The notes beneath the pieces are model-generated. The model saw only the letters and a program-made list of their open reading frames with translations. It did not search any database and had not been told where the DNA came from. DNA of 63,868 bases, filler included, from Nitrospinae bacterium RIFCSPLOWO2_12_FULL_45_22 (lineage in GTDB: Bacteria > 2-12-FULL-45-22): the NCBI GenBank assembly GCA_001803565.1. It is 4 parts of 4 records of this genome, joined end to end, with 100 filler letters (N's around TTAATTAATTAA, not from the genome) between each part and the next. Parts side by side here need not be neighbours in the genome. Positions count along the whole stretch, not along the records: positions 55,943 to 63,868 come from MHDQ01000138.1; 3 more parts are not named here. One strand, written 5' to 3'. The translations under genes were made by a program, and so were the position numbers. Within the stretch, counting starts at the first letter, position 1; each line of letters starts with the position of its first letter. This document shows, in pieces, positions 55,943 through 63,868 of the stretch.

Positions 55943-56719
55943 ATTATTTATCAACTTAAGGATGTATCTTTGCCCTCCGCTATTCAGGGCCTTGCGGATC
56001 TGGCCTAAGGAACCACAGAGCCTGATCTTGCCCTGGTCGATGATAGCCATCCGGTCGCACAACTGCTCTGCCTCTTCCAGGTTATGGGTAGCCAGAAAGA
56101 CCGTCTTCCCATTTTCCAATACCAGCTTATTCCGTAAGAATTCCCTGAGCTTGTGCGCAGCTATCGGGTCCAGGCTCTTGGTCGGCTCATCCATTAAAAG
56201 TGTGCCTGGATTAGTCAGGAGTGCCCGGGCAATAGAGAGCCGTTGCCGCATACCGGTGGAATAGTCCTTGAACATCCGGTCAGCATGATCTTCCAGCTCC
56301 ACCTGCTGTAATACTTCTTTTACCCTACCCTGGGCTTCTGCCCGGGAGAGGTTATTCAGCGTAGCAAAGAAGATCAGGTTTTGTCGGCCCGTGAGGCGCC
56401 AGGAGAAGCTCCTTTCATCACTGACCACATAGCCAATAGCCCGCCTGATCTCCCTGCCATTCTTCACAACATTGTATCCATGGACATAGGCCTGCCCTGC
56501 ATCAGGCAGGATCAAGGTGCATAGGATCTTTATCAGGGTAGTCTTACCGGCCCCATTGGGTCCTAGCAGACCGAACAATTCCCCCTCCTCTACCTGGATA
56601 CTTACCCGATCCAGGGCCAGGACTTCCTTCCGCTGGAAGGGATGGAAGACTAAATCCCCATAGCCTTTGGCCTGCAAAAACCGCTTGGTTAAGTCAATAG
56701 TCTCAATAGCAAAACCCAT
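55943..56719 (-). CDS. ABC-2 type transporter ATP-binding protein, 3'-truncated
   Basis: GPNGAGKT, YSTGM, LLMDEPT and TH motifs. Confidence 0.92.
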
Positions 56720-56919
56720 CGAGTATTATCCTTTAAGCAGGATGAATAACGCAATCTATATTTAATCTCCTCTAGGCCCCTTCTTACCGGAGAAGGCTCT
56801 TTTTTGTTGGCTTGGCCCCTCATAGGCTACAAGAGAAAAGCAAGGATTCCTCTTTATAAAGGTTTTCTGAACTGATAGAGATATTGACAAACCGATAAAA
56901 AACTAATATAGAATAAGAA

Positions 56920-57168
56920 ATGAAAGAAGATAAAATTTATCATAAGGCTAAGACTAACCCTTATGGACTTCGATTCAATGAGTTTTGTAATCTTATCGAG
57001 GCCTTTGGATTTATCCATCGCCGTCAAAAAGGTAGCCATGTCATTTATGGTCGGCCAGACATCCCGGAATTTGTTAATATTCAGAGCGATAGAGGAAAGG
57101 CTAAAAGTTATCAAGTTAAGCAATTCTTGCAACTTATTGAAAAATATGATTTAAGGATGGAGGAATAG
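56920..57168 (+). CDS. hicA: HicA family toxin
   Basis: KGSH...AKSYQVKQ motif. Confidence 0.85.
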   Translation: MKEDKIYHKAKTNPYGLRFNEFCNLIEAFGFIHRRQKGSHVIYGRPDIPEFVNIQSDRGKAKSYQVKQFLQLIEKYDLRMEE

Positions 57169-57170
57169 GA

Positions 57171-57395
57171 GTGAAAAGAAAATTTAAATATCGTATAGAA
57201 GTAAGCTATAGCCAGGAAGATGATTGTTACATAGCTATAGTGCCTGAGCTGAAGGGATGTAATACATTCGGTGATACACCGGAGGAGGCGGTAAAAGAAG
57301 TAGAGACAGCTATTGAGCTGTGGATTGAGCTTGCTAAAGAAATGGGACGGGAAATACCAGGGCCAGCCTCCAAACCTTATATCTTCTCGCATTAA
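57171..57395 (+). CDS. hicB: HicB family antitoxin
   Basis: VPELKGC.TFGDTPEEA...W.E...G.EIP motif. Confidence 0.88.
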   Translation: MKRKFKYRIEVSYSQEDDCYIAIVPELKGCNTFGDTPEEAVKEVETAIELWIELAKEMGREIPGPASKPYIFSH

Positions 57396-57538
57396 CCTAT
57401 AATCCTACTATCTTCCAGGAAAATAAAATCTCCAGACGTGCCATTCCTTTCTTTATGATGTCACCTGGTAAGCTGCCCACCCGGTCTTTCCTGAAGATTT
57501 ATTAGTGTTACTAATCGACCTTTTTAGTGTAACTAATA

Positions 57539-57949
57539 CTATCCCTTCTGAGCTTTCAGCTCAATGATAAAGCCGCTGAAGGCGGCCAGGCAATCTACCA
57601 GAATATCTCGTAACTGGAATGAACGGAATGGGACCGTGGACTGATAGAACTCATCCATCACACCATAGAAGCAGGTAAAGATCAGGGTAGTAATCAGGCC
57701 TACCTGCCTCATCTTATTACCCTGCTCTTGATGGATAAATACCCCTTTAGCCAGTTGGAAGAGGACAAAATAGAGGAAGAAATGGGCCGGGTATTGGACA
57801 GAATCACCGAATACCTGCTTCAGGAAAGAAAATTTCTTTACAATAAGAGCAGCCGAGGGTGTAGATAGGTAGAAGATAAATACCATCCACCCCATAGTGG
57901 CCAGTAAGGATATCACGGTGCGATAGCGTAGCCATAAAAGCTTATCCAC
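57539..57949 (-). CDS. VanZ family membrane protein
   Basis: IFYLS, HFFLY and DEFYQSTVPFR....D motifs. Confidence 0.82.
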   Translation of the reverse strand: MDKLLWLRYRTVISLLATMGWMVFIFYLSTPSAALIVKKFSFLKQVFGDSVQYPAHFFLYFVLFQLAKGVFIHQEQGNKMRQVGLITTLIFTCFYGVMDEFYQSTVPFRSFQLRDILVDCLAAFSGFIIELKAQKG

Positions 57950-58207
57950 AAATAGACTCTATCGGCGAAGTCCGAAAAGCATTAACCCACATCCAGGGCG
58001 ACCAATCTCAGGTAGCACCTAAGCAAGGGCATCCTAAGTTCACCATTGCTACTGCCCAACGGTAGCAGATACAGGCTCTGGATATCTACTGGAATCTTAC
58101 ATTTTGCCTTCGGCAAATCCTTATCCGCTAAGCATCTTTCATTGCTACCGATGGATTCAGGATTAATGTAATTTAGCGGTGTTGACTCCCAGAATCAGGA
58201 TCTGTTC

Positions 58208-58264
58208 CTGAAAAAGGGTAGCCTGAATTGAGCAACCGCCCACCCAGGACACCCCCCCTTTCAG
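58208..58264 (-). terminator. Stem-loop just 3' of the precursor gene
   Basis: On the minus strand CTGAAAGGGGG pairs with CCCTTTTTCAG. Confidence 0.4.
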
Positions 58265-58281
58265 TATCCCACCCCGGAAGT

Positions 58282-58422
58282 TTAGCCACCAGATAACCAG
58301 TTATTAACTGCATCGATAATAAAGCTACCTACGTCATCGCCGCTACATGCACATGTACCGGCTAGTGAAGTAGCTTCCAGCCGCTCAGACTTAATCTCTG
58401 GCTTGACATATTTTCGTTTCAT
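58282..58422 (-). CDS. RiPP precursor peptide, 46 aa, absent from the ORF track
   Basis: The GGAGG RBS overlaps the rSAM stop. MKRKYVKPEIKSERLEATSLAGTCACSGDDVGSFIIDAVNNWLSGG* carries a YxxPxI leader. Confidence 0.85.
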   Translation of the reverse strand: MKRKYVKPEIKSERLEATSLAGTCACSGDDVGSFIIDAVNNWLSGG

Positions 58423-58426
58423 ATCT

Positions 58427-59485
58427 TCACCTCCTCTCAGGCGGGATGGCCCCCTGGCATAGCCAGTGGGCTTGCCGGCAGTATCCTGCCGAACACTGGA
58501 AGATATCTCCCTTTTCCAGATAATTTACCCCCAGGCAGGGGGTACAAAAAGGCAAGATATCACACTGAACACATTGCGAAAGATTCGATAAGCTAGCAGC
58601 CCTTATTTGCTTTAATACCTCTGGAGGAGCTGTCTGCCAGATATCCCTAAAGCTATTTTTTCGCAGGCTCCCCAGACCGCTGGGAATCAGCACGCAGGGA
58701 TATACCAATCCCTGGGGAGAGATACTGCATAAGGATCGGCCGGCATTGCAAAAATCCTTTTTGCTAAGTTGAGATTCCGACAAACTTTTGCTGCCTGCCT
58801 GCCCAAGGCTCAATCTCTTACCAGTTGCCCATTGAGACAGGTACCTCTTCCAATCCTCTTCAGAAATCTGGTACTGTAGCGGATTCCGGGAGCCATCTAC
58901 CTTTGGAATAACCATAGGACCGATGCTAAACCTTGCCCCTAATCTCCGGGCTATATCCTTTAGCCCCTCATATTCATGGATATTCTCTCTCATCATGGTG
59001 CTCTTAATAACAGTAGGTATCTGCTCCCTTTGCAGGAGACCGAGGGCATTTATCGTTCTGATGTAAGAACCAGATACCCCGGTAATCGCATCATGAACTT
59101 GGGGGCTGGCCCCATAGAGGCTAATCTCCACCTGGGTAATCCCTATCTCTTTCAGGCATTGAACTATGGACGGGGTTATAAAAGTTCCGTTGGTAAGGAG
59201 GATAACGACGAAATGCTGCCCGGCAAACCGGATTATCTCTGATAAATCCTCCCGGAGGAATATCTCTCCCCCGGACAAGGCCAGACTGACCGTTCCCATC
59301 TCCTGGAGTTGTTTCAGGATATCGATAATTTCCGGATAGGTGAGCTCATCCCCCTCTTCCTTATCTACGACATAGCAATGGCAGCAATCCAGATTACAGC
59401 GGTGAGTCAACTCGAAATGGACCCCCCAGGGTAAACAGAACTCCCTATATTTATTCTGTATAGCAGTAATCAAGCTAGCCGGCAT
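58427..59485 (-). CDS. Radical SAM/SPASM peptide maturase
   Basis: CNLDCCHC and SGGE motifs. SPASM domain C...GxVYPC...CxxCx5CxxC...C. Confidence 0.9.
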   Translation of the reverse strand: MPASLITAIQNKYREFCLPWGVHFELTHRCNLDCCHCYVVDKEEGDELTYPEIIDILKQLQEMGTVSLALSGGEIFLREDLSEIIRFAGQHFVVILLTNGTFITPSIVQCLKEIGITQVEISLYGASPQVHDAITGVSGSYIRTINALGLLQREQIPTVIKSTMMRENIHEYEGLKDIARRLGARFSIGPMVIPKVDGSRNPLQYQISEEDWKRYLSQWATGKRLSLGQAGSKSLSESQLSKKDFCNAGRSLCSISPQGLVYPCVLIPSGLGSLRKNSFRDIWQTAPPEVLKQIRAASLSNLSQCVQCDILPFCTPCLGVNYLEKGDIFQCSAGYCRQAHWLCQGAIPPERR

Positions 59486-59528
59486 ATTTTTATCTCACAA
59501 GTGGGGCTATTTTCTGTCAGAAAAGACC

Positions 59529-59602
59529 GTAACTCAACCCTTCAGGGTTGATCAGTCAGAGTCTGCCCTGGGCTTGTCGAAGGGGCTAAAGCCCTGAGTT
59601 AC
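59529..59602. repeat. GTAACTCA...TGAGTTAC REP-like element with a nested GCCCTG..GTCGAAGG mini-repeat
   Basis: Related copies at 37361-37406 and 60815-60863. Confidence 0.7.
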
Positions 59603-59641
59603 GCCTACTTCATGACAAAGAATACCCCCACCCTATTTTTC

Positions 59642-60472
59642 CTACAAGCTTTCGATGAGGTGCCAGAAGCTATTGTCCTGCGTAAAATGCAGCTCATAGC
59701 AAGGTATTTTATTGACCAGCCCGGAGACGAGCCTTAATACCTCTGAGATAGCTTCTATTCGATTATCAGAGAAATTAGCGGGATAAAAGAGAAGGGGAAA
59801 GAGTTTTATACCTGCATCTATACCCTTAATCCTCTGGACATAAGAGATATTATCCTTTCTAAGGATAAATATCCCCCTCAGCTTCTTAGTCAAATCAGTA
59901 GAGGCATAAAAATCGCCCTTTACAGGTGTCCCTTTCAGCCAGTATTCCCCGTTGATGTTACTAATAAGGACCAGTTCGTCGTTAATCGCAATACCTTCTG
60001 GATGAGACAATCTGGATATTGTTGTCTTGCCACTGCCCGATGGGCCGGCAAAGACATAACCTTTATCATCTCTGATAATACCGGCTGCATGTAAAAAAAC
60101 ACTATCCTCCTGCCCCTTTTTTAAGATATAAAAGGCGCTTATCAGCAGAGACAAAAGGTAAGCAGGGTGGAGGGGGTTAGCTGCCTCTTCAAATAACACC
60201 TTGATTTTCGTTCCCCCACGGCGGAAATATCCCCTAACCCCTCTATCCCCATAGCCGATTTCTTGCCACTCGGGGTCGCTCAGGATTTCTGCACTCTTGA
60301 CACGTCCGGCTGGCAAAAATCCTATCTCAAGGCTGATCTGGGGCTTATGATTATGATCAGGTAAGATAAAAGAGTTTCGTAGACTCTTGATAAAGGGTTC
60401 ATTAATGGATATTATCGAAAAAGACACCCCACCAAGCTCCAGGTCAATCCGATTATTCTCTTCCCCAGGCAT
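59642..60472 (-). CDS. HPr-kinase-related P-loop protein (ScmC-like RiPP accessory kinase)
   Basis: LHAAG, GPSGSGKTT and NDE motifs, ending PCYELHF....FW. Confidence 0.8.
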   Translation of the reverse strand: MPGEENNRIDLELGGVSFSIISINEPFIKSLRNSFILPDHNHKPQISLEIGFLPAGRVKSAEILSDPEWQEIGYGDRGVRGYFRRGGTKIKVLFEEAANPLHPAYLLSLLISAFYILKKGQEDSVFLHAAGIIRDDKGYVFAGPSGSGKTTISRLSHPEGIAINDELVLISNINGEYWLKGTPVKGDFYASTDLTKKLRGIFILRKDNISYVQRIKGIDAGIKLFPLLFYPANFSDNRIEAISEVLRLVSGLVNKIPCYELHFTQDNSFWHLIESL

Positions 60473-60860
60473 ATATTATCTCCTGGTAACAGTTAACAGG
60501 GTTCAGGAAAAGACTTTAAATTAGTAACAGGTATAGGCAGAGGCATAGGTAGAGAATTTCCTGTACCTCTACCTCTTCTTATTTGGAGATTGCGCTAAGG
60601 GTTAAATGCCCGTGAAGGTCTTTGAAGAAAAGCCTTTCTGGCCTGTCTGCCAAGGCACAGGCAGGAATGTCATTCCGAGCGAAGCGAGGAATCTTGTATT
60701 TTAACGGTATAGAAGATTTCTCCCTTTGGTCGAAATGACAACTTTATTTGGTCGTTTACTATAAGTTATATGCCTTTATACATCCAGATTAAGTTACCTG
60801 CTTTTTATACATCCGTAACTCAGGGCTTTAGCCCTGACAGGTCAACCCTAAAAGGTCGAG

Positions 60861-61136
60861 TCACTCCCTTTTTACGTTCTCCTTAAACTCAACCACCCCT
60901 TTTTCAGAAAGGATACGGATAAATTCAGCGGTATCCTGCCGGGCTGTGCTCTCTTCTACCTCAAATTCCTGGCATATCTTCAAGATAATCTCTTCTACCG
61001 TCATAGCGCCATCCGCGCAGTTCCAGATTTCAGTCCCTACTTCATTTAAGACATGGAACCATTCCCCATCTTCGCCTATGATAATGGTTTCACCGTCTAC
61101 TACTCTCCAGATACATTTCGATCGTTTTATATACAT
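60861..61136 (-). CDS. PqqD family RiPP recognition element (RRE)
   Basis: WRVVDGETII...LNEVGTEIW...DG...I...F.V...A..D..F...L..G pattern. Confidence 0.92.
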   Translation of the reverse strand: MYIKRSKCIWRVVDGETIIIGEDGEWFHVLNEVGTEIWNCADGAMTVEEIILKICQEFEVEESTARQDTAEFIRILSEKGVVEFKENVKRE

Positions 61137-61160
61137 AAAATCTTCTTCCTCCCTTTTACT

Positions 61161-61760
61161 CTAATGTCCTGGCCAGGCAGCCCTTACTAATATAGCTACC
61201 ATGATCCTATGCGCCGATAAGACAGGTTTCTTTGCGGCCCGATATAGCCATTTAAAAAATACTAATTCATACTGCCCATTAAGCCTTTGCTGGAAGTATC
61301 CCAGCCTTCTTCCAAGCAGATAGGCGCCATAAAAATAGACAGCAAATAGACGATTAATCAGTCCCCCCCAACCCCTATCTATCCTTAGAAGGTTATATTC
61401 CCCTCTTTTAATAGCCACCACCTTGCCCAGTACACTACTGGCCGGGATCTGCACCGCTATACTTCCTCGATCGCCTTTCTGCCAGAAAAAGAGCCCCTCA
61501 TCGTCCCTATATTTGCCGATCACCCGATGGGTAATGAAGGTGCCGTCTTCTGAGAAGACAATAATATCACCGAATCTTATCTCTCCTGCAGGAACCCGTT
61601 GGGCCAGCACCCGATCGTTTACCTCAATCAGGGGCATCATGCTGCCCGAGGTGATACGGAACCAGGCCTTCCCATTTCGGGCAAAATACTCTGCCCAGAG
61701 TTCCTTAATCATCTCTTTAGGCAGAGAAAACCCGTTCTTTTTCTCACCAATGTTCAGCAT
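61161..61760 (-). CDS. S26/S24 family peptidase (Ser-His type)
   Basis: SGSMMP, GDIIVF, THRV and KGD motifs. No N-terminal TM helix before the catalytic Ser. Confidence 0.85.
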   Translation of the reverse strand: MLNIGEKKNGFSLPKEMIKELWAEYFARNGKAWFRITSGSMMPLIEVNDRVLAQRVPAGEIRFGDIIVFSEDGTFITHRVIGKYRDDEGLFFWQKGDRGSIAVQIPASSVLGKVVAIKRGEYNLLRIDRGWGGLINRLFAVYFYGAYLLGRRLGYFQQRLNGQYELVFFKWLYRAAKKPVLSAHRIMVAILVRAAWPGH

Positions 61761-61918
61761 AAACTCCATCCGCAAATTAACAATTGACCCTTTTTCCCTT
61801 TGACAGGCACAACTATATTATATATTCTAAATACATAGTATAACCCATTTAGGGAGGTGCATTATGGATACGGTTCGTTAAATATTACTCTGCCAAAAGA
61901 ACTGGCCCGGCAGTTAGA
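61731..61918 (+). repeat. ~190-bp direct repeat, copy 1
   Basis: Near-identical to 63680-63868. Confidence 0.92.
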
Positions 61919-62132
61919 TAAGTTGGTTGGATCCAGAAAAAAGAGTCGTTTCATCACCGAAACCCTGACCCAAAGGATAAAGCAAATTCAGCATGAAGAA
62001 CTTCAGAAACTTTTGGAAGAAGGCTATCGTGCCACCAAACAAGAGGGCCTTGCTATAGCAAAAGAGTTTGAACCCATAAAAATCTTCGGAAGATCTATCC
62101 CTTTGAGGTATTCTTACCTATTTCTCCTTTAA
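61864..62132 (+). pseudogene. Ribbon-helix-helix antitoxin-like gene with a 1-bp frameshift
   Basis: GGAGG RBS, then ATG GAT ACG GTT CG-, lacking one G that is present in the second copy (MDTVRLNI...). NITLP...KSRFI...L.EGY pattern. Confidence 0.75.
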
Positions 62133-62462
62133 CTCATTAATGATCCTCTCAAACTTCTTCATTATCTGTTCGATAGACATTTCAGGAGTTTTCTCATGTC
62201 GCTCTGGGTACTCAATGGGATGATAATGCCAGTTGTCCAAATTATCTATACCGAAAATGCGATCTTTATCCTTGATCAAAGCAAAATCAACGCGTCTTTT
62301 TCTATAGCCATAGAAAATGTCGATAAATAGAGAGGAAGTAATCATAACCCTAACTTTTAGTCTTAATACGTTAAATTCATTTAACTCAACTTTAGCAGAA
62401 GGGAAGTACCTCTTGATGCTCTGTTCCACTTCCTGGAGGAATTCCTTAACTGAAATGAACAT
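62118..62462 (-). CDS. DUF6516/TumE-like toxin-type protein
   Basis: FALIK...IFGIDN...WHYHP motif. Confidence 0.6.
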   Translation of the reverse strand: MFISVKEFLQEVEQSIKRYFPSAKVELNEFNVLRLKVRVMITSSLFIDIFYGYRKRRVDFALIKDKDRIFGIDNLDNWHYHPIEYPERHEKTPEMSIEQIMKKFERIINELKEK

Positions 62463-62785
62463 TACTTTTGAAATATCTCCTCCTGGATGTTGCGCAATTG
62501 AGAAAGGATCAGGGTGTGTTCATCATCGAGGCTTTCCCACTCCATATAATCTCGCTCAACCGGATGAGAGTATTTATCAGGGATAAGGTTACTTTCCCAG
62601 GCATCTTTAAATTCATTGAAACTCATGCCATATTTGCTTTCAAAGGAATAAATTCGGTCTAAACAAGCCCTCAAACTTTGCTTCAAATCGCTAACTACCA
62701 GATGCATTAATTTATCATCTATTGTTTCCCCTTCTATATATTCTAAGGCTGATTTCACGGCTTTTGGAATGTTATTTATTTCCAC
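62462..62785 (-). CDS. Antitoxin-like hypothetical protein
   Basis: FESKYGMSFNEF...DYMEWE motif; coupled to the downstream gene. Confidence 0.65.
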   Translation of the reverse strand: MEINNIPKAVKSALEYIEGETIDDKLMHLVVSDLKQSLRACLDRIYSFESKYGMSFNEFKDAWESNLIPDKYSHPVERDYMEWESLDDEHTLILSQLRNIQEEIFQK

Positions 62786-63044
62786 AACCTTATCTCCTTC
62801 TTAAAAGGCTACCGTCTTTTTGTGAAATTTCGGAAGTTTTCTGATGTTGATTTGGATTCCAAATAGGATGATAATGCCATTCAGGTAGATTATCAATACC
62901 TAAGTTTATCAGTGGCGATGAGTGTTTATCTGATTTCATCCGTGAAGACATTTGTAATCCCAAGAATGTCGATCTGTCAGGCTAGTGAGTAATAGTATAA
63001 CAAGGAGTTCCACTCTGCAGCTACATTGCAGCAGATGAGCTTGA

Positions 63045-63680
63045 GTTTCTCGCTTATTTTTTTTGTAACCGTTCACCCGGTTCCCTTTGGGTGCTGCCAC
63101 TAAGGCACAAAAAGACCATGTAGCCGCAGGGCCTTGCCCTGCTAAGATGGCAGCGTAAGACGCTGCTGCTACCTTTCCTTAGTGCTTTGATGGCTGAACG
63201 GGTACTTTTTTTTTAAACCCGTGAATTTACCGAAGATTATATTTTAGAAATTCAATTTTGAGCCATTGTAAACCGTTATAAAAACGTAATAGCACAACTC
63301 TCAATATTGTCATTTCGACCGAAGGGAGAAATCTTTGTTTTGCCGATAGCAGAAATCTTTACCCTTCAGAACACAGGTCGTTCCAGGTTGGATTAATCTG
63401 ATTAACCAATTGGTTCTTTTTCTCCCTTCGCCAGTTACTTCAACTCCGCTTCAGTACAAGCCTTAATTTCTTTTTCCCTAGCAATAGCTGCAGTTACATC
63501 ACTTTATTGTTCCAGTTTGTTAGCAAATAAACATAATAACCTTCTGCCATAGACGTTTAAGATTTCTCCCGGAGTTTACCCTGAGCTCCAATAAAAGATT
63601 CCTCGCTTCGCTCGGAATGACAGGGGCGAAGGGGTCGGAATGACATTATTCATACCTTTTGTTAAAAATAAGCGAGAGAC
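63045..63680. mobile_element. Composite non-autonomous element bounded by GTYTCTCGCTTATTTTT inverted repeats
   Basis: Inverted repeats at 63045-63061 and 63664-63680. Contains a GTAACCGTTCA MITE and a REP-flanked GIY-YIG remnant. Confidence 0.55.
63359..63550 (-). pseudogene. GIY-YIG nuclease remnant with an internal deletion and a mini-repeat insertion
   Basis: Three fragments: MAEGYYVYLLTNWNNKVM, DVTAAIAREKEIK and NWRREKKNQLVNQINPTWNDL. Flanked by TGTCATT...AATGACA REP arms. Confidence 0.85.
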
Positions 63681-63868
63681 CCGTTCTTTTTCTCACAAAT
63701 GTTCAGCATAAACTCCATCCGCAAATTAACAATTGACCCTTTTTCCCTTTGACAGGCACAACTATACTATGTATTTTAAATACATAGTATAACCCATTTA
63801 GGGAGGTGCATTATGGATACGGTTCGGTTAAATATTGCTCTGCCAAAGGAACTGGCCCGGCAGTTAGA
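63680..63868 (+). repeat. ~190-bp direct repeat, copy 2, containing the intact antitoxin start (ATG 63813); runs off the window end
   Basis: MDTVRLNIALPKELARQL is in frame. Confidence 0.9.

Follow-up and report, generated by a model that had tools for sequence, protein, structure and literature searches.

SynChlorMet (TIGR04248-TIGR04251: ScmD, ScmC, ScmE, ScmF; PF27840) is a system defined in databases, and its product is uncharacterised. It combines a PqqD protein, SPASM radical S-adenosylmethionine (SAM) enzymes and a ScmC-type P-loop protein, and the same three kinds of protein are encoded by the gene cassette examined here. This cassette lies in a 63,868-nt stretch of DNA (the window), which consists of several contigs of one metagenome-assembled genome, that of Nitrospinae bacterium RIFCSPLOWO2_12_FULL_45_22, with runs of N between them. 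It is carried by contig C138 (window 55943-63868, 7.9 kb); since the contigs are joined by N runs, the DNA below 55843 is no neighbour of the cassette. The source genome measures 3.67 Mb in 321 contigs and is 85% complete.

The phosphorylated and phosphoglycosylated lasso peptides (paeninodin, pseudomycoidin) come from systems that join an HPr-kinase homologue and a nucleotidyltransferase homologue to B1/PqqD. With them the window cassette and its relatives share a Tyr-x-x-Pro leader, a PqqD protein closest to lasso B1 models, a (here putative) kinase of the HPrK-like superfamily, precursors with a C-terminal Ser and little else in common and, in relatives of the window cassette, NTP_transf_5 genes. 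The window cassette differs in having no lasso cyclase or B2 protease, in the radical SAM/SPASM enzyme that defines its class and in its S26-like leader peptidase. As reported in PMC8498205 and PMC9266682, the HPr-kinase homologues of lasso clusters act on linear precursors, where they phosphorylate the Ser at the C-terminus and require little else for recognition; that Ser is the only feature common to the precursors, and the nucleotidyltransferase homologue places a hexose on the phosphate. Sactipeptide and ranthipeptide systems (SkfB, AlbA, StsB, PapB) also pair a SPASM radical SAM enzyme with a Cys-bearing core; the RiPP (ribosomally made, post-translationally modified peptide) recognition element (RRE) of the window is, by contrast, a separate protein, and the kinase-like gene, the S26-like gene and the leader motif set the two apart. 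The pyrroloquinoline quinone (PQQ) and mycofactocin pathways (PqqD/PqqE, MftB/MftC) have a stand-alone PqqD-type chaperone and a SPASM radical SAM enzyme in common with the window, with full-length matches of 106-114 bits. Their cut-offs of 381 and 265 bits are nevertheless unmet, the cores found here are hypervariable and Cys-rich and not those of a cofactor precursor, and the accessory genes differ. Finally, SipW/Sec11-type (S26B) signal peptidases show the same Ser-His catalytic boxes and S24/S26 fold as the window peptidase, which has two long C-terminal helices instead of a hydrophobic anchor and whose genomic context suggests a role as RiPP leader peptidase.

A true SynChlorMet cassette was available for comparison in locus L074, where ScmD (142.7 bits), ScmE (626), ScmF (598) and ScmC (304) are all above cut-off. 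It also has an S26B-type peptidase and an NTP_transf_5-like gene, and between ScmF and ScmC lies a small open reading frame (ORF) with the leader M-K-Y-E-K-P-E-L, two Cys and the end -T-G-G. Where SynChlorMet has two radical SAM enzymes, the window cassette has one, and the core peptides are unrelated. Its proteins miss the equivalog cut-offs of ScmC (32.3 bits, 6e-8, against 125), ScmD (28 against 100), ScmE (120.6 against 400) and ScmF (82.8 against 400). Given the shared parts and leader, the missed cut-offs and the single radical SAM enzyme, we regard the window cassette as a distant one-enzyme relative of SynChlorMet; the resemblance to SynChlorMet asserted in the original prediction is borne out by the same parts and leader motif in L074. 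Matches to the HPr-rel-A and HPr-rel-B models stay far below their cut-off of 200 (TIGR04352, HprK_rel_A, 26.6 bits, 3e-6; TIGR04355, HprK_rel_B, 20.4 bits), as do those to GeoRSP below theirs (TIGR04302, 42.1 bits against 100; TIGR04303, 98.5 against 400). A full-text literature search, with subscription journals outside its coverage, returned no paper in which an HPr-kinase homologue and a radical SAM RiPP are brought together; the RiPP literature naming HPr kinase concerned lasso peptides or was unrelated. The pathway had been proposed as new. Its product is indeed uncharacterised, but Pfam already lists the kinase-like family, as ScmC, and the cassette family is widespread, so that the window cassette is a variant within a large, database-listed family.

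The cassette, its precursor peptides and its recurrence

The five core genes, in order of transcription, are:

61161-61775, minus strand: S26B/SipW-type serine peptidase without a membrane anchor, 204 aa, proposed leader peptidase (S24/S26 Pfam matches, 3e-4 and 6e-4)
60861-61136, minus strand: stand-alone PqqD-family RiPP recognition element, 91 aa (Pfam PqqD, 6.1e-17)
59642-60472, minus strand: ScmC-family P-loop protein with an HPr-kinase/PEPCK-like fold, proposed peptide Ser kinase, 276 aa (NCBIfam, PF27840)
58427-59485, minus strand: peptide maturase of the radical SAM/SPASM type, with no fused RRE, 352 aa (Pfam Radical_SAM, 1e-20; SPASM, 1.8e-7)
58282-58422, minus strand: precursor peptide, 46 aa, MKRKYVKPEIKSERLEATSLAGTCACSGDDVGSFIIDAVNNWLSGG; leader containing K-Y-V-K-P-E-I, core containing C-A-C-S-G, tail N-N-W-L-S-G-G

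ORF, Pfam and NCBIfam evidence places all five on the minus strand, as had been claimed. A vanZ gene follows in the same direction, then a plus-strand HicA/HicB pair, then a minus-strand ABC ATPase gene running off the contig. The earlier description of the downstream region as vanZ and an ABC ATPase therefore names two genes that are present; it passed over the HicAB pair between them and the truncation of the ABC gene by the contig end.

The pair of precursor and radical SAM enzyme, together with a stand-alone PqqD protein, a ScmC-family protein and an anchorless peptidase, recurs across phyla. The source genome itself contains three cassettes, on C138, C258 and C54. The latter two repeat the four proteins of C138, and each has a small ORF that contains Cys and shares the leader. 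Scanning with the kinase-like protein fetched 53 related loci, 41 from metagenomes and 12 from species genomes (Chloroflexota, Nitrospirota, Desulfobacterales, Actinomycetota and one Oscillospiraceae record). PqqD is encoded in 33 of the 53, the radical SAM enzyme in 31, the peptidase in 22 and an NTP_transf_5-like protein in nine. Where at least 2.5 kb is available on both flanks (18 loci), the counts are 16 for radical SAM, 15 for PqqD with radical SAM, 13 for the peptidase and seven for NTP_transf_5-like genes. The usual order is kinase-like gene, PqqD, radical SAM, precursor, peptidase. NTP_transf_5 genes are present in the related cassettes C54, L011, L017 and L019; the source genome has two, on C54 and C284. 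Because this combination of genes, with a peptide of one kind, turns up in many unrelated loci, the arrangement is far beyond chance.

The precursor gene of the window has a GGAGG box 6 nt upstream of its ATG, which lies 4 nt past the radical SAM stop codon. Lasso leaders carry a Tyr-x-x-Pro-x-Leu motif, and the leader residues Y5-V-K-P8-E-I10 of the window peptide fit a motif of this type; the core holds two Cys, C24 and C26. A leader profile was built from 12 seed peptides found by motif and run over the 4064 small ORFs of the related loci; almost all of its matches lie directly behind a radical SAM gene. With three further peptides from a six-frame motif scan and one (P0195) from a protein collection, 31 distinct precursors with adjoining homologous radical SAM genes were collected. 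All 31 have an aromatic-x-x-Pro motif, mostly K-Y-x-K-P-x-I/L/V, followed by Cys; 30 have at least two Cys, and in 26 the first Cys stands 16-20 residues past the aromatic residue (Tyr) of the motif. The C-terminal residue is Ser in 24 of the 31, compared with 10.6% among the small ORFs of these loci taken together. That the locus is a RiPP cluster with a real precursor, and that homologous operons share a conserved peptide, is thus supported by one leader motif in 31 peptides beside homologous radical SAM genes. In an NCBIfam scan of 17 precursors (that of the window and 16 relatives) none reached any curated cut-off, the sole match being that of the window peptide to StsA (E 0.006, 16.5 bits against a cut-off of 42).

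The nearest homologue of the window peptide, P0195, is 76% identical and terminates in -N-N-W-L-S; the next nearest, from locus L025, has T-C-x-C-S-G and N-W in common with it and likewise a Ser end. These two ends identify Ser44 of the window peptide as the counterpart of the family's terminal Ser. Contigs assembled from individual sequencing runs cover the whole precursor ORF without differences in three cases (X1, X3, X4), so the -GG end is no assembly error; a fourth (X2) covers part of the ORF.

From these sequence comparisons the locus is probably a cassette for the maturation of a ribosomal peptide, a one-radical-SAM form within the ScmC (SynChlorMet-like) superfamily, and would bring about RRE-guided Cys cross-linking, Ser phosphorylation, leader removal and export.

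Proposed maturation steps and competing explanations

In the proposed pathway, PqqD would bind the Tyr-x-x-Pro leader and present the core to a radical SAM enzyme without an N-terminal RRE of its own. The top NCBIfam model of the window PqqD is lasso_PqqD_Bac (B1, NF033536), at 44.5 bits under a cut-off of 80. The radical SAM enzyme, with its C-x3-C-x2-C site near residue 31, would then modify C24 and C26; the likeliest products are sactionine- or ranthionine-type thioethers that link the Cys to other residues of the core. SkfB is a Cys-thioether-forming enzyme, and it is the closest solved relative (6efn, 3.8e-18), followed by PqqE (6c8v, 9.9e-15). Every NCBIfam match of the enzyme falls under its curated cut-off, and PapB is not among its best 25 families. 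A rather unlikely but substantial alternative keeps the same cassette and assigns the enzyme a chemistry other than Cys thioether formation: anSME-type Cys oxidation, a C-C or C-O cross-link, epimerisation or an MftC-like C-terminal reaction. MftC (113.6 bits, residues 19-323) and PqqE are matched at full length as well as the sactisynthases are, PqqE is the second-best solved relative, in one precursor, that of L022, there is only one Cys and the end is -C-Y, and Cys spacing varies greatly among the precursors. On the other hand, no core residue other than Cys is common to all 31 precursors, the position of Cys from the leader is fixed in 26 of them, and the best solved relative makes a Cys thioether. 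Cys thioether formation remains the preferred assignment.

The ScmC-like enzyme, with ATP, would phosphorylate the conserved Ser near the C-terminus, which is Ser44 here and the terminal residue in most relatives; this step is proposed by analogy with the lasso HPr-kinase homologues. Precomputed Pfam matches assign PF27840.1 (named ScmC in the Atlas) to the window protein P0001 and to all 17 other homologues listed; a scan with a Pfam library lacking PF27840 gave no match. Residue H128, the P-loop G143-x-S-G-x-G-K-T and D165 are invariant in an alignment of 19 sequences. The AlphaFold2 (AF2) model has a predicted local distance difference test (pLDDT) score of 88.9, and its best fold match is the ATP-dependent PEPCK 1xkv_B, over both domains (E 1.6e-8, TM 0.56). 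A profile search of the sequences of solved structures found PEPCK at E 0.002 and HPr kinase/phosphorylase (HPrK/P) at E 0.008. The family is large: a search of 1.84 billion protein representatives gave 3717 members with E<=1e-30 and 18219 with E<=1e-10, and all members looked up are unnamed or 'hypothetical'. Among 37 kinase-like proteins placed in a tree, that of the window pairs with that of L025 (support 100/99), and the clades track precursor core types. One natural PqqD-ScmC fusion (P0112) ties the ScmC-like enzyme to RRE-presented peptides; a search of proteins of at least 558 aa for fused forms gave only one unrelated multi-P-loop protein. A complex prediction for the ScmC-like protein with PqqD, run without controls, scored 0.28 against a mark of 0.32 and is not used as evidence either way. 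We also note a protein of 444 aa (P0156, from a 10-member cluster) that combines the kinase-like protein with a C-terminal Peptidase_M23 domain (Pfam 1.6e-18).

The original prediction called the product possibly phosphorylated. This fits, by analogy, with the 24 of 31 precursors ending in Ser, the residue on which lasso HPr-kinase homologues act according to PMC8498205. We consider it unlikely that the ScmC-like protein is no C-terminal-Ser kinase and instead phosphorylates another residue, activates a carboxylate, or is a scaffold driven by ATP or a peptidase partner. In favour of this, the ScmC-like protein matches the fold of PEPCK over its whole length and not that of HPrK/P alone, the sequence match to HPrK/P is weak, the kinase-like and peptidase genes are adjacent or overlapping in C258, C54 and L011, and both the window and the true SynChlorMet peptides end in -[S/T]-G-G and not in Ser. 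Against this stand the enrichment of terminal Ser, the co-occurrence of NTP_transf_5 genes as described for phosphoglycosylated lasso clusters, and the invariant Walker A motif, His and Asp, as in HPrK-type kinases. The kinase assignment is the one we carry forward.

The soluble peptidase would cleave the leader in the small-residue stretch S-L-A-G-T, right before the first Cys. Its start is ambiguous (TTG 61775, ATG 61769 or ATG 61760). With TIGR02228 it scores 51.2 bits, just below the cut-off of 51.85, and its paralogue on C54 scores 65.3. An alignment of 14 sequences has S45, M46, P48, H83, R84, G101 and D102 invariant, which make up the Ser box S-M-x-P, the His box H-R and the G-D box. 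Kyte-Doolittle hydropathy never exceeds 1.6 in any 19-residue window of the protein, and 14 of 15 family peptidases lack a hydrophobic 19-mer. The AF2 model (pLDDT 85.2) consists of an S24/S26 core and the two long C-terminal helices, with SipA (4n31), LexA and human SEC11 (7p2q) as best fold matches. The conserved boxes, the missing hydrophobic segment and the modelled fold agree with the soluble S26 peptidase that had been predicted. In the last step, an ABC-2 transporter, whose ATPase gene would be the one at the contig end, may export the product.

Several observations weigh against this pathway. No sactipeptide or ranthipeptide maturase cut-off is reached (AlbA, 92.6 bits against 850; StsB, 99 against 625; SkfB, 81.5 against 300), and the top partial NCBIfam matches of the radical SAM enzyme are heme-pathway enzymes (AhbD, 152 bits). 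Terminal Ser is missing in seven of the 31 precursors, the window peptide itself ends in -SGG and not -S, and contig C138 has no NTP_transf_5 gene. Much of the set of 31 precursors consists of closely related peptides (L034/35/39/40/41/42 and L013-15, for instance), and the count therefore overstates their independence; grouped by core type, in our own grouping, about 10 of about 14 types have Ser ends. VanZ is unseen in the nine annotated related loci, and repeat-filled spacers split the operon. No RNA run is listed as containing window 57500-61800.

The spacers also bear on whether the window cassette might be a decaying copy, inactivated by insertion of repeats and of a toxin-antitoxin pair. 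Two spacers are repeat-filled, HicAB lies inside the cluster and the window peptide carries an atypical -GG extension, but all five core reading frames are intact with their catalytic motifs, and near-identical sequence of the locus, with few differences, is present in public runs from several studies; we hold decay to be very improbable. The reading as a lasso cluster, with cyclase and B2 protease genes located beyond the ends of the short contig, can be dismissed, despite the lasso-like leader, the lasso B1-like PqqD and a contig of only 7.9 kb: C138 encodes neither protein, the B2 family (PF13471) has no match above cut-off anywhere in the 85%-complete source genome, no Asn_synthase or Transglut_core3 match occurs among 77 neighbour proteins at 11 loci (nine related ones, C54 and C258), the constant partner is a radical SAM gene, present in 16 of the 18 loci that could be evaluated, and neither Asp nor Glu occurs in the window core at positions 7-9, whichever plausible cleavage site is taken. 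PF13471 matches in five genomes with kinase homologues lie only on contigs other than the kinase-bearing ones. The earlier statement that this is not a lasso cluster is upheld.

Taking the family as a whole, it is conceivable, and we put it forward tentatively, that ScmC-type cassettes constitute a large unrecognised RiPP class that unites a lasso-type leader and RRE, the lasso module that tailors the C-terminal Ser (kinase with or without nucleotidyltransferase) and radical SAM cross-linking. If so, its product would be the first radical-SAM-cross-linked peptide with a C-terminal O-phospho(glycosyl)serine, and cytoplasmic removal of the leader by a signal-peptidase-like enzyme would represent a new kind of RiPP leader peptidase. 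The analysis supplies the ScmC-like family with putative substrates, a leader rule and a fixed position of the first Cys, and the terminal-Ser rule leads to a concrete chemical prediction. It also connects the lasso phosphorylation module, which is known from experiment, with SynChlorMet, so far a cassette known from databases only. To our knowledge the TIGRFAMs text on SynChlorMet reads 'precursor not identified'; this question becomes directly testable by co-expression. A bolder idea, prompted by the polysaccharide genes and giant C25 peptidases that recur near the cassettes (below), is that the phospho-Ser end could anchor sugars on a secreted or surface peptide and not be an antibiotic decoration.

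Neighbouring genes, repeats and further observations

Around and between the core genes the following features were assigned:

57539-57949, minus strand: VanZ-family membrane protein (NF037970 vanZ_1, 58.6 bits, cut-off 20; Pfam VanZ, 1.7e-7)
57171-57395, plus strand: HicB antitoxin (Pfam HicB_lk_antitox, 3.2e-10)
56920-57168, plus strand: HicA toxin (Pfam HicA_toxin, 8.6e-9)
55943-56719, minus strand: DrrA-type ABC-2 transporter ATPase, 3'-truncated, proposed exporter subunit (TIGR01188, 245 bits, cut-off 312; ABC_tran, 5e-32)
60473-60860, no strand: spacer between the PqqD and ScmC-like genes, 388 nt, with dispersed short repeats
59486-59641, no strand: spacer between the ScmC-like and radical SAM genes, 156 nt, with a dispersed repeat

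It is uncertain whether VanZ is part of the cassette; the HicA/HicB pair is an insertion unrelated to it. The ABC ATPase gene is incomplete at its 3' end because contig C138 ends there. Its product is 52.6% identical to an ATPase encoded within the Desulfobacterales cassette L019 and is the best match of that ATPase in the source genome. ABC-2 permeases are encoded in L017, in L019 and at the start of C258. Contig C138 begins inside the ABC ATPase, and C258 begins with the last 61 residues of an ABC-2 permease, 46% identical to the permease within the L019 cassette; the two contigs, with one cassette each, may be direct neighbours across a short gap. Directly behind the C258 cassette is a gene for a sigma-54-dependent response regulator (C258 3623-5158), a possible regulator of that copy. 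A promoter and terminator scan found no more sites than in shuffled sequences (8 against 10.6 and 5 against 6.3).

BLASTN of the spacers against the genome gave 76 matches on 54 contigs for the 388-nt spacer and 26 for the 156-nt spacer, with 12-24 repeat copies per segment over 54 contigs of the genome. Read depth in four public runs rises to ~3000x at 60668-60811 from ~10x, pointing to a repeat element widely shared in these communities, and Logan contigs break at this repeat. The 388-nt spacer has inverted matches to 63590-63622 and 63307-63335, and an inverted repeat (I4) has its arms at 59583-59603 and 60814-60834. The 388-nt spacer is probably a later insertion and no functional element of the cassette.

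Upstream of the cassette, a 153-nt direct repeat (96% identical) occurs at 61730-61882 and, at the contig end, 63679-63831. The first copy includes the peptidase gene's 5' end and extends across the divergent intergenic region into the first part of an ORF of ribbon-helix-helix type (61857-62132). Two small ORFs on the minus strand with no Pfam match (62118-62462 and 62462-62785) and a degraded paralogue at 62790-62963 lie between it and the second copy. A Pfam scan of the upstream ORFs (61857-63100) gave only a weak RHH_1 match (E 0.0012).

Four loci from different lineages have a giant Peptidase_C25 protein (gingipain-like, 1031-1756 aa) immediately next to the cassette (L011 1306-5346, L012 10314-15584, L013 9675-12767, L016 10698-13871). 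Locus L011 runs on into exopolysaccharide genes (AAA_22, Wzz/GNVR, Wzy_C), and the C54 cassette is preceded by genes read from their ORF translations, without a family scan, as sugar-modifying. The kinase-like gene of Chloroflexota loci has a small ORF in front of it (L013 6547-6918 and L016 6247-6603, 48% identical); this ORF has no Pfam match and a conserved motif, T-A-G-F-N-L-Y-R ... Y-Y-Y-x-L-E. By reading of the sequences, a domain with the same motif and a hydrophobic stretch are fused N-terminally to the kinase-like protein in P0095 and P0118.

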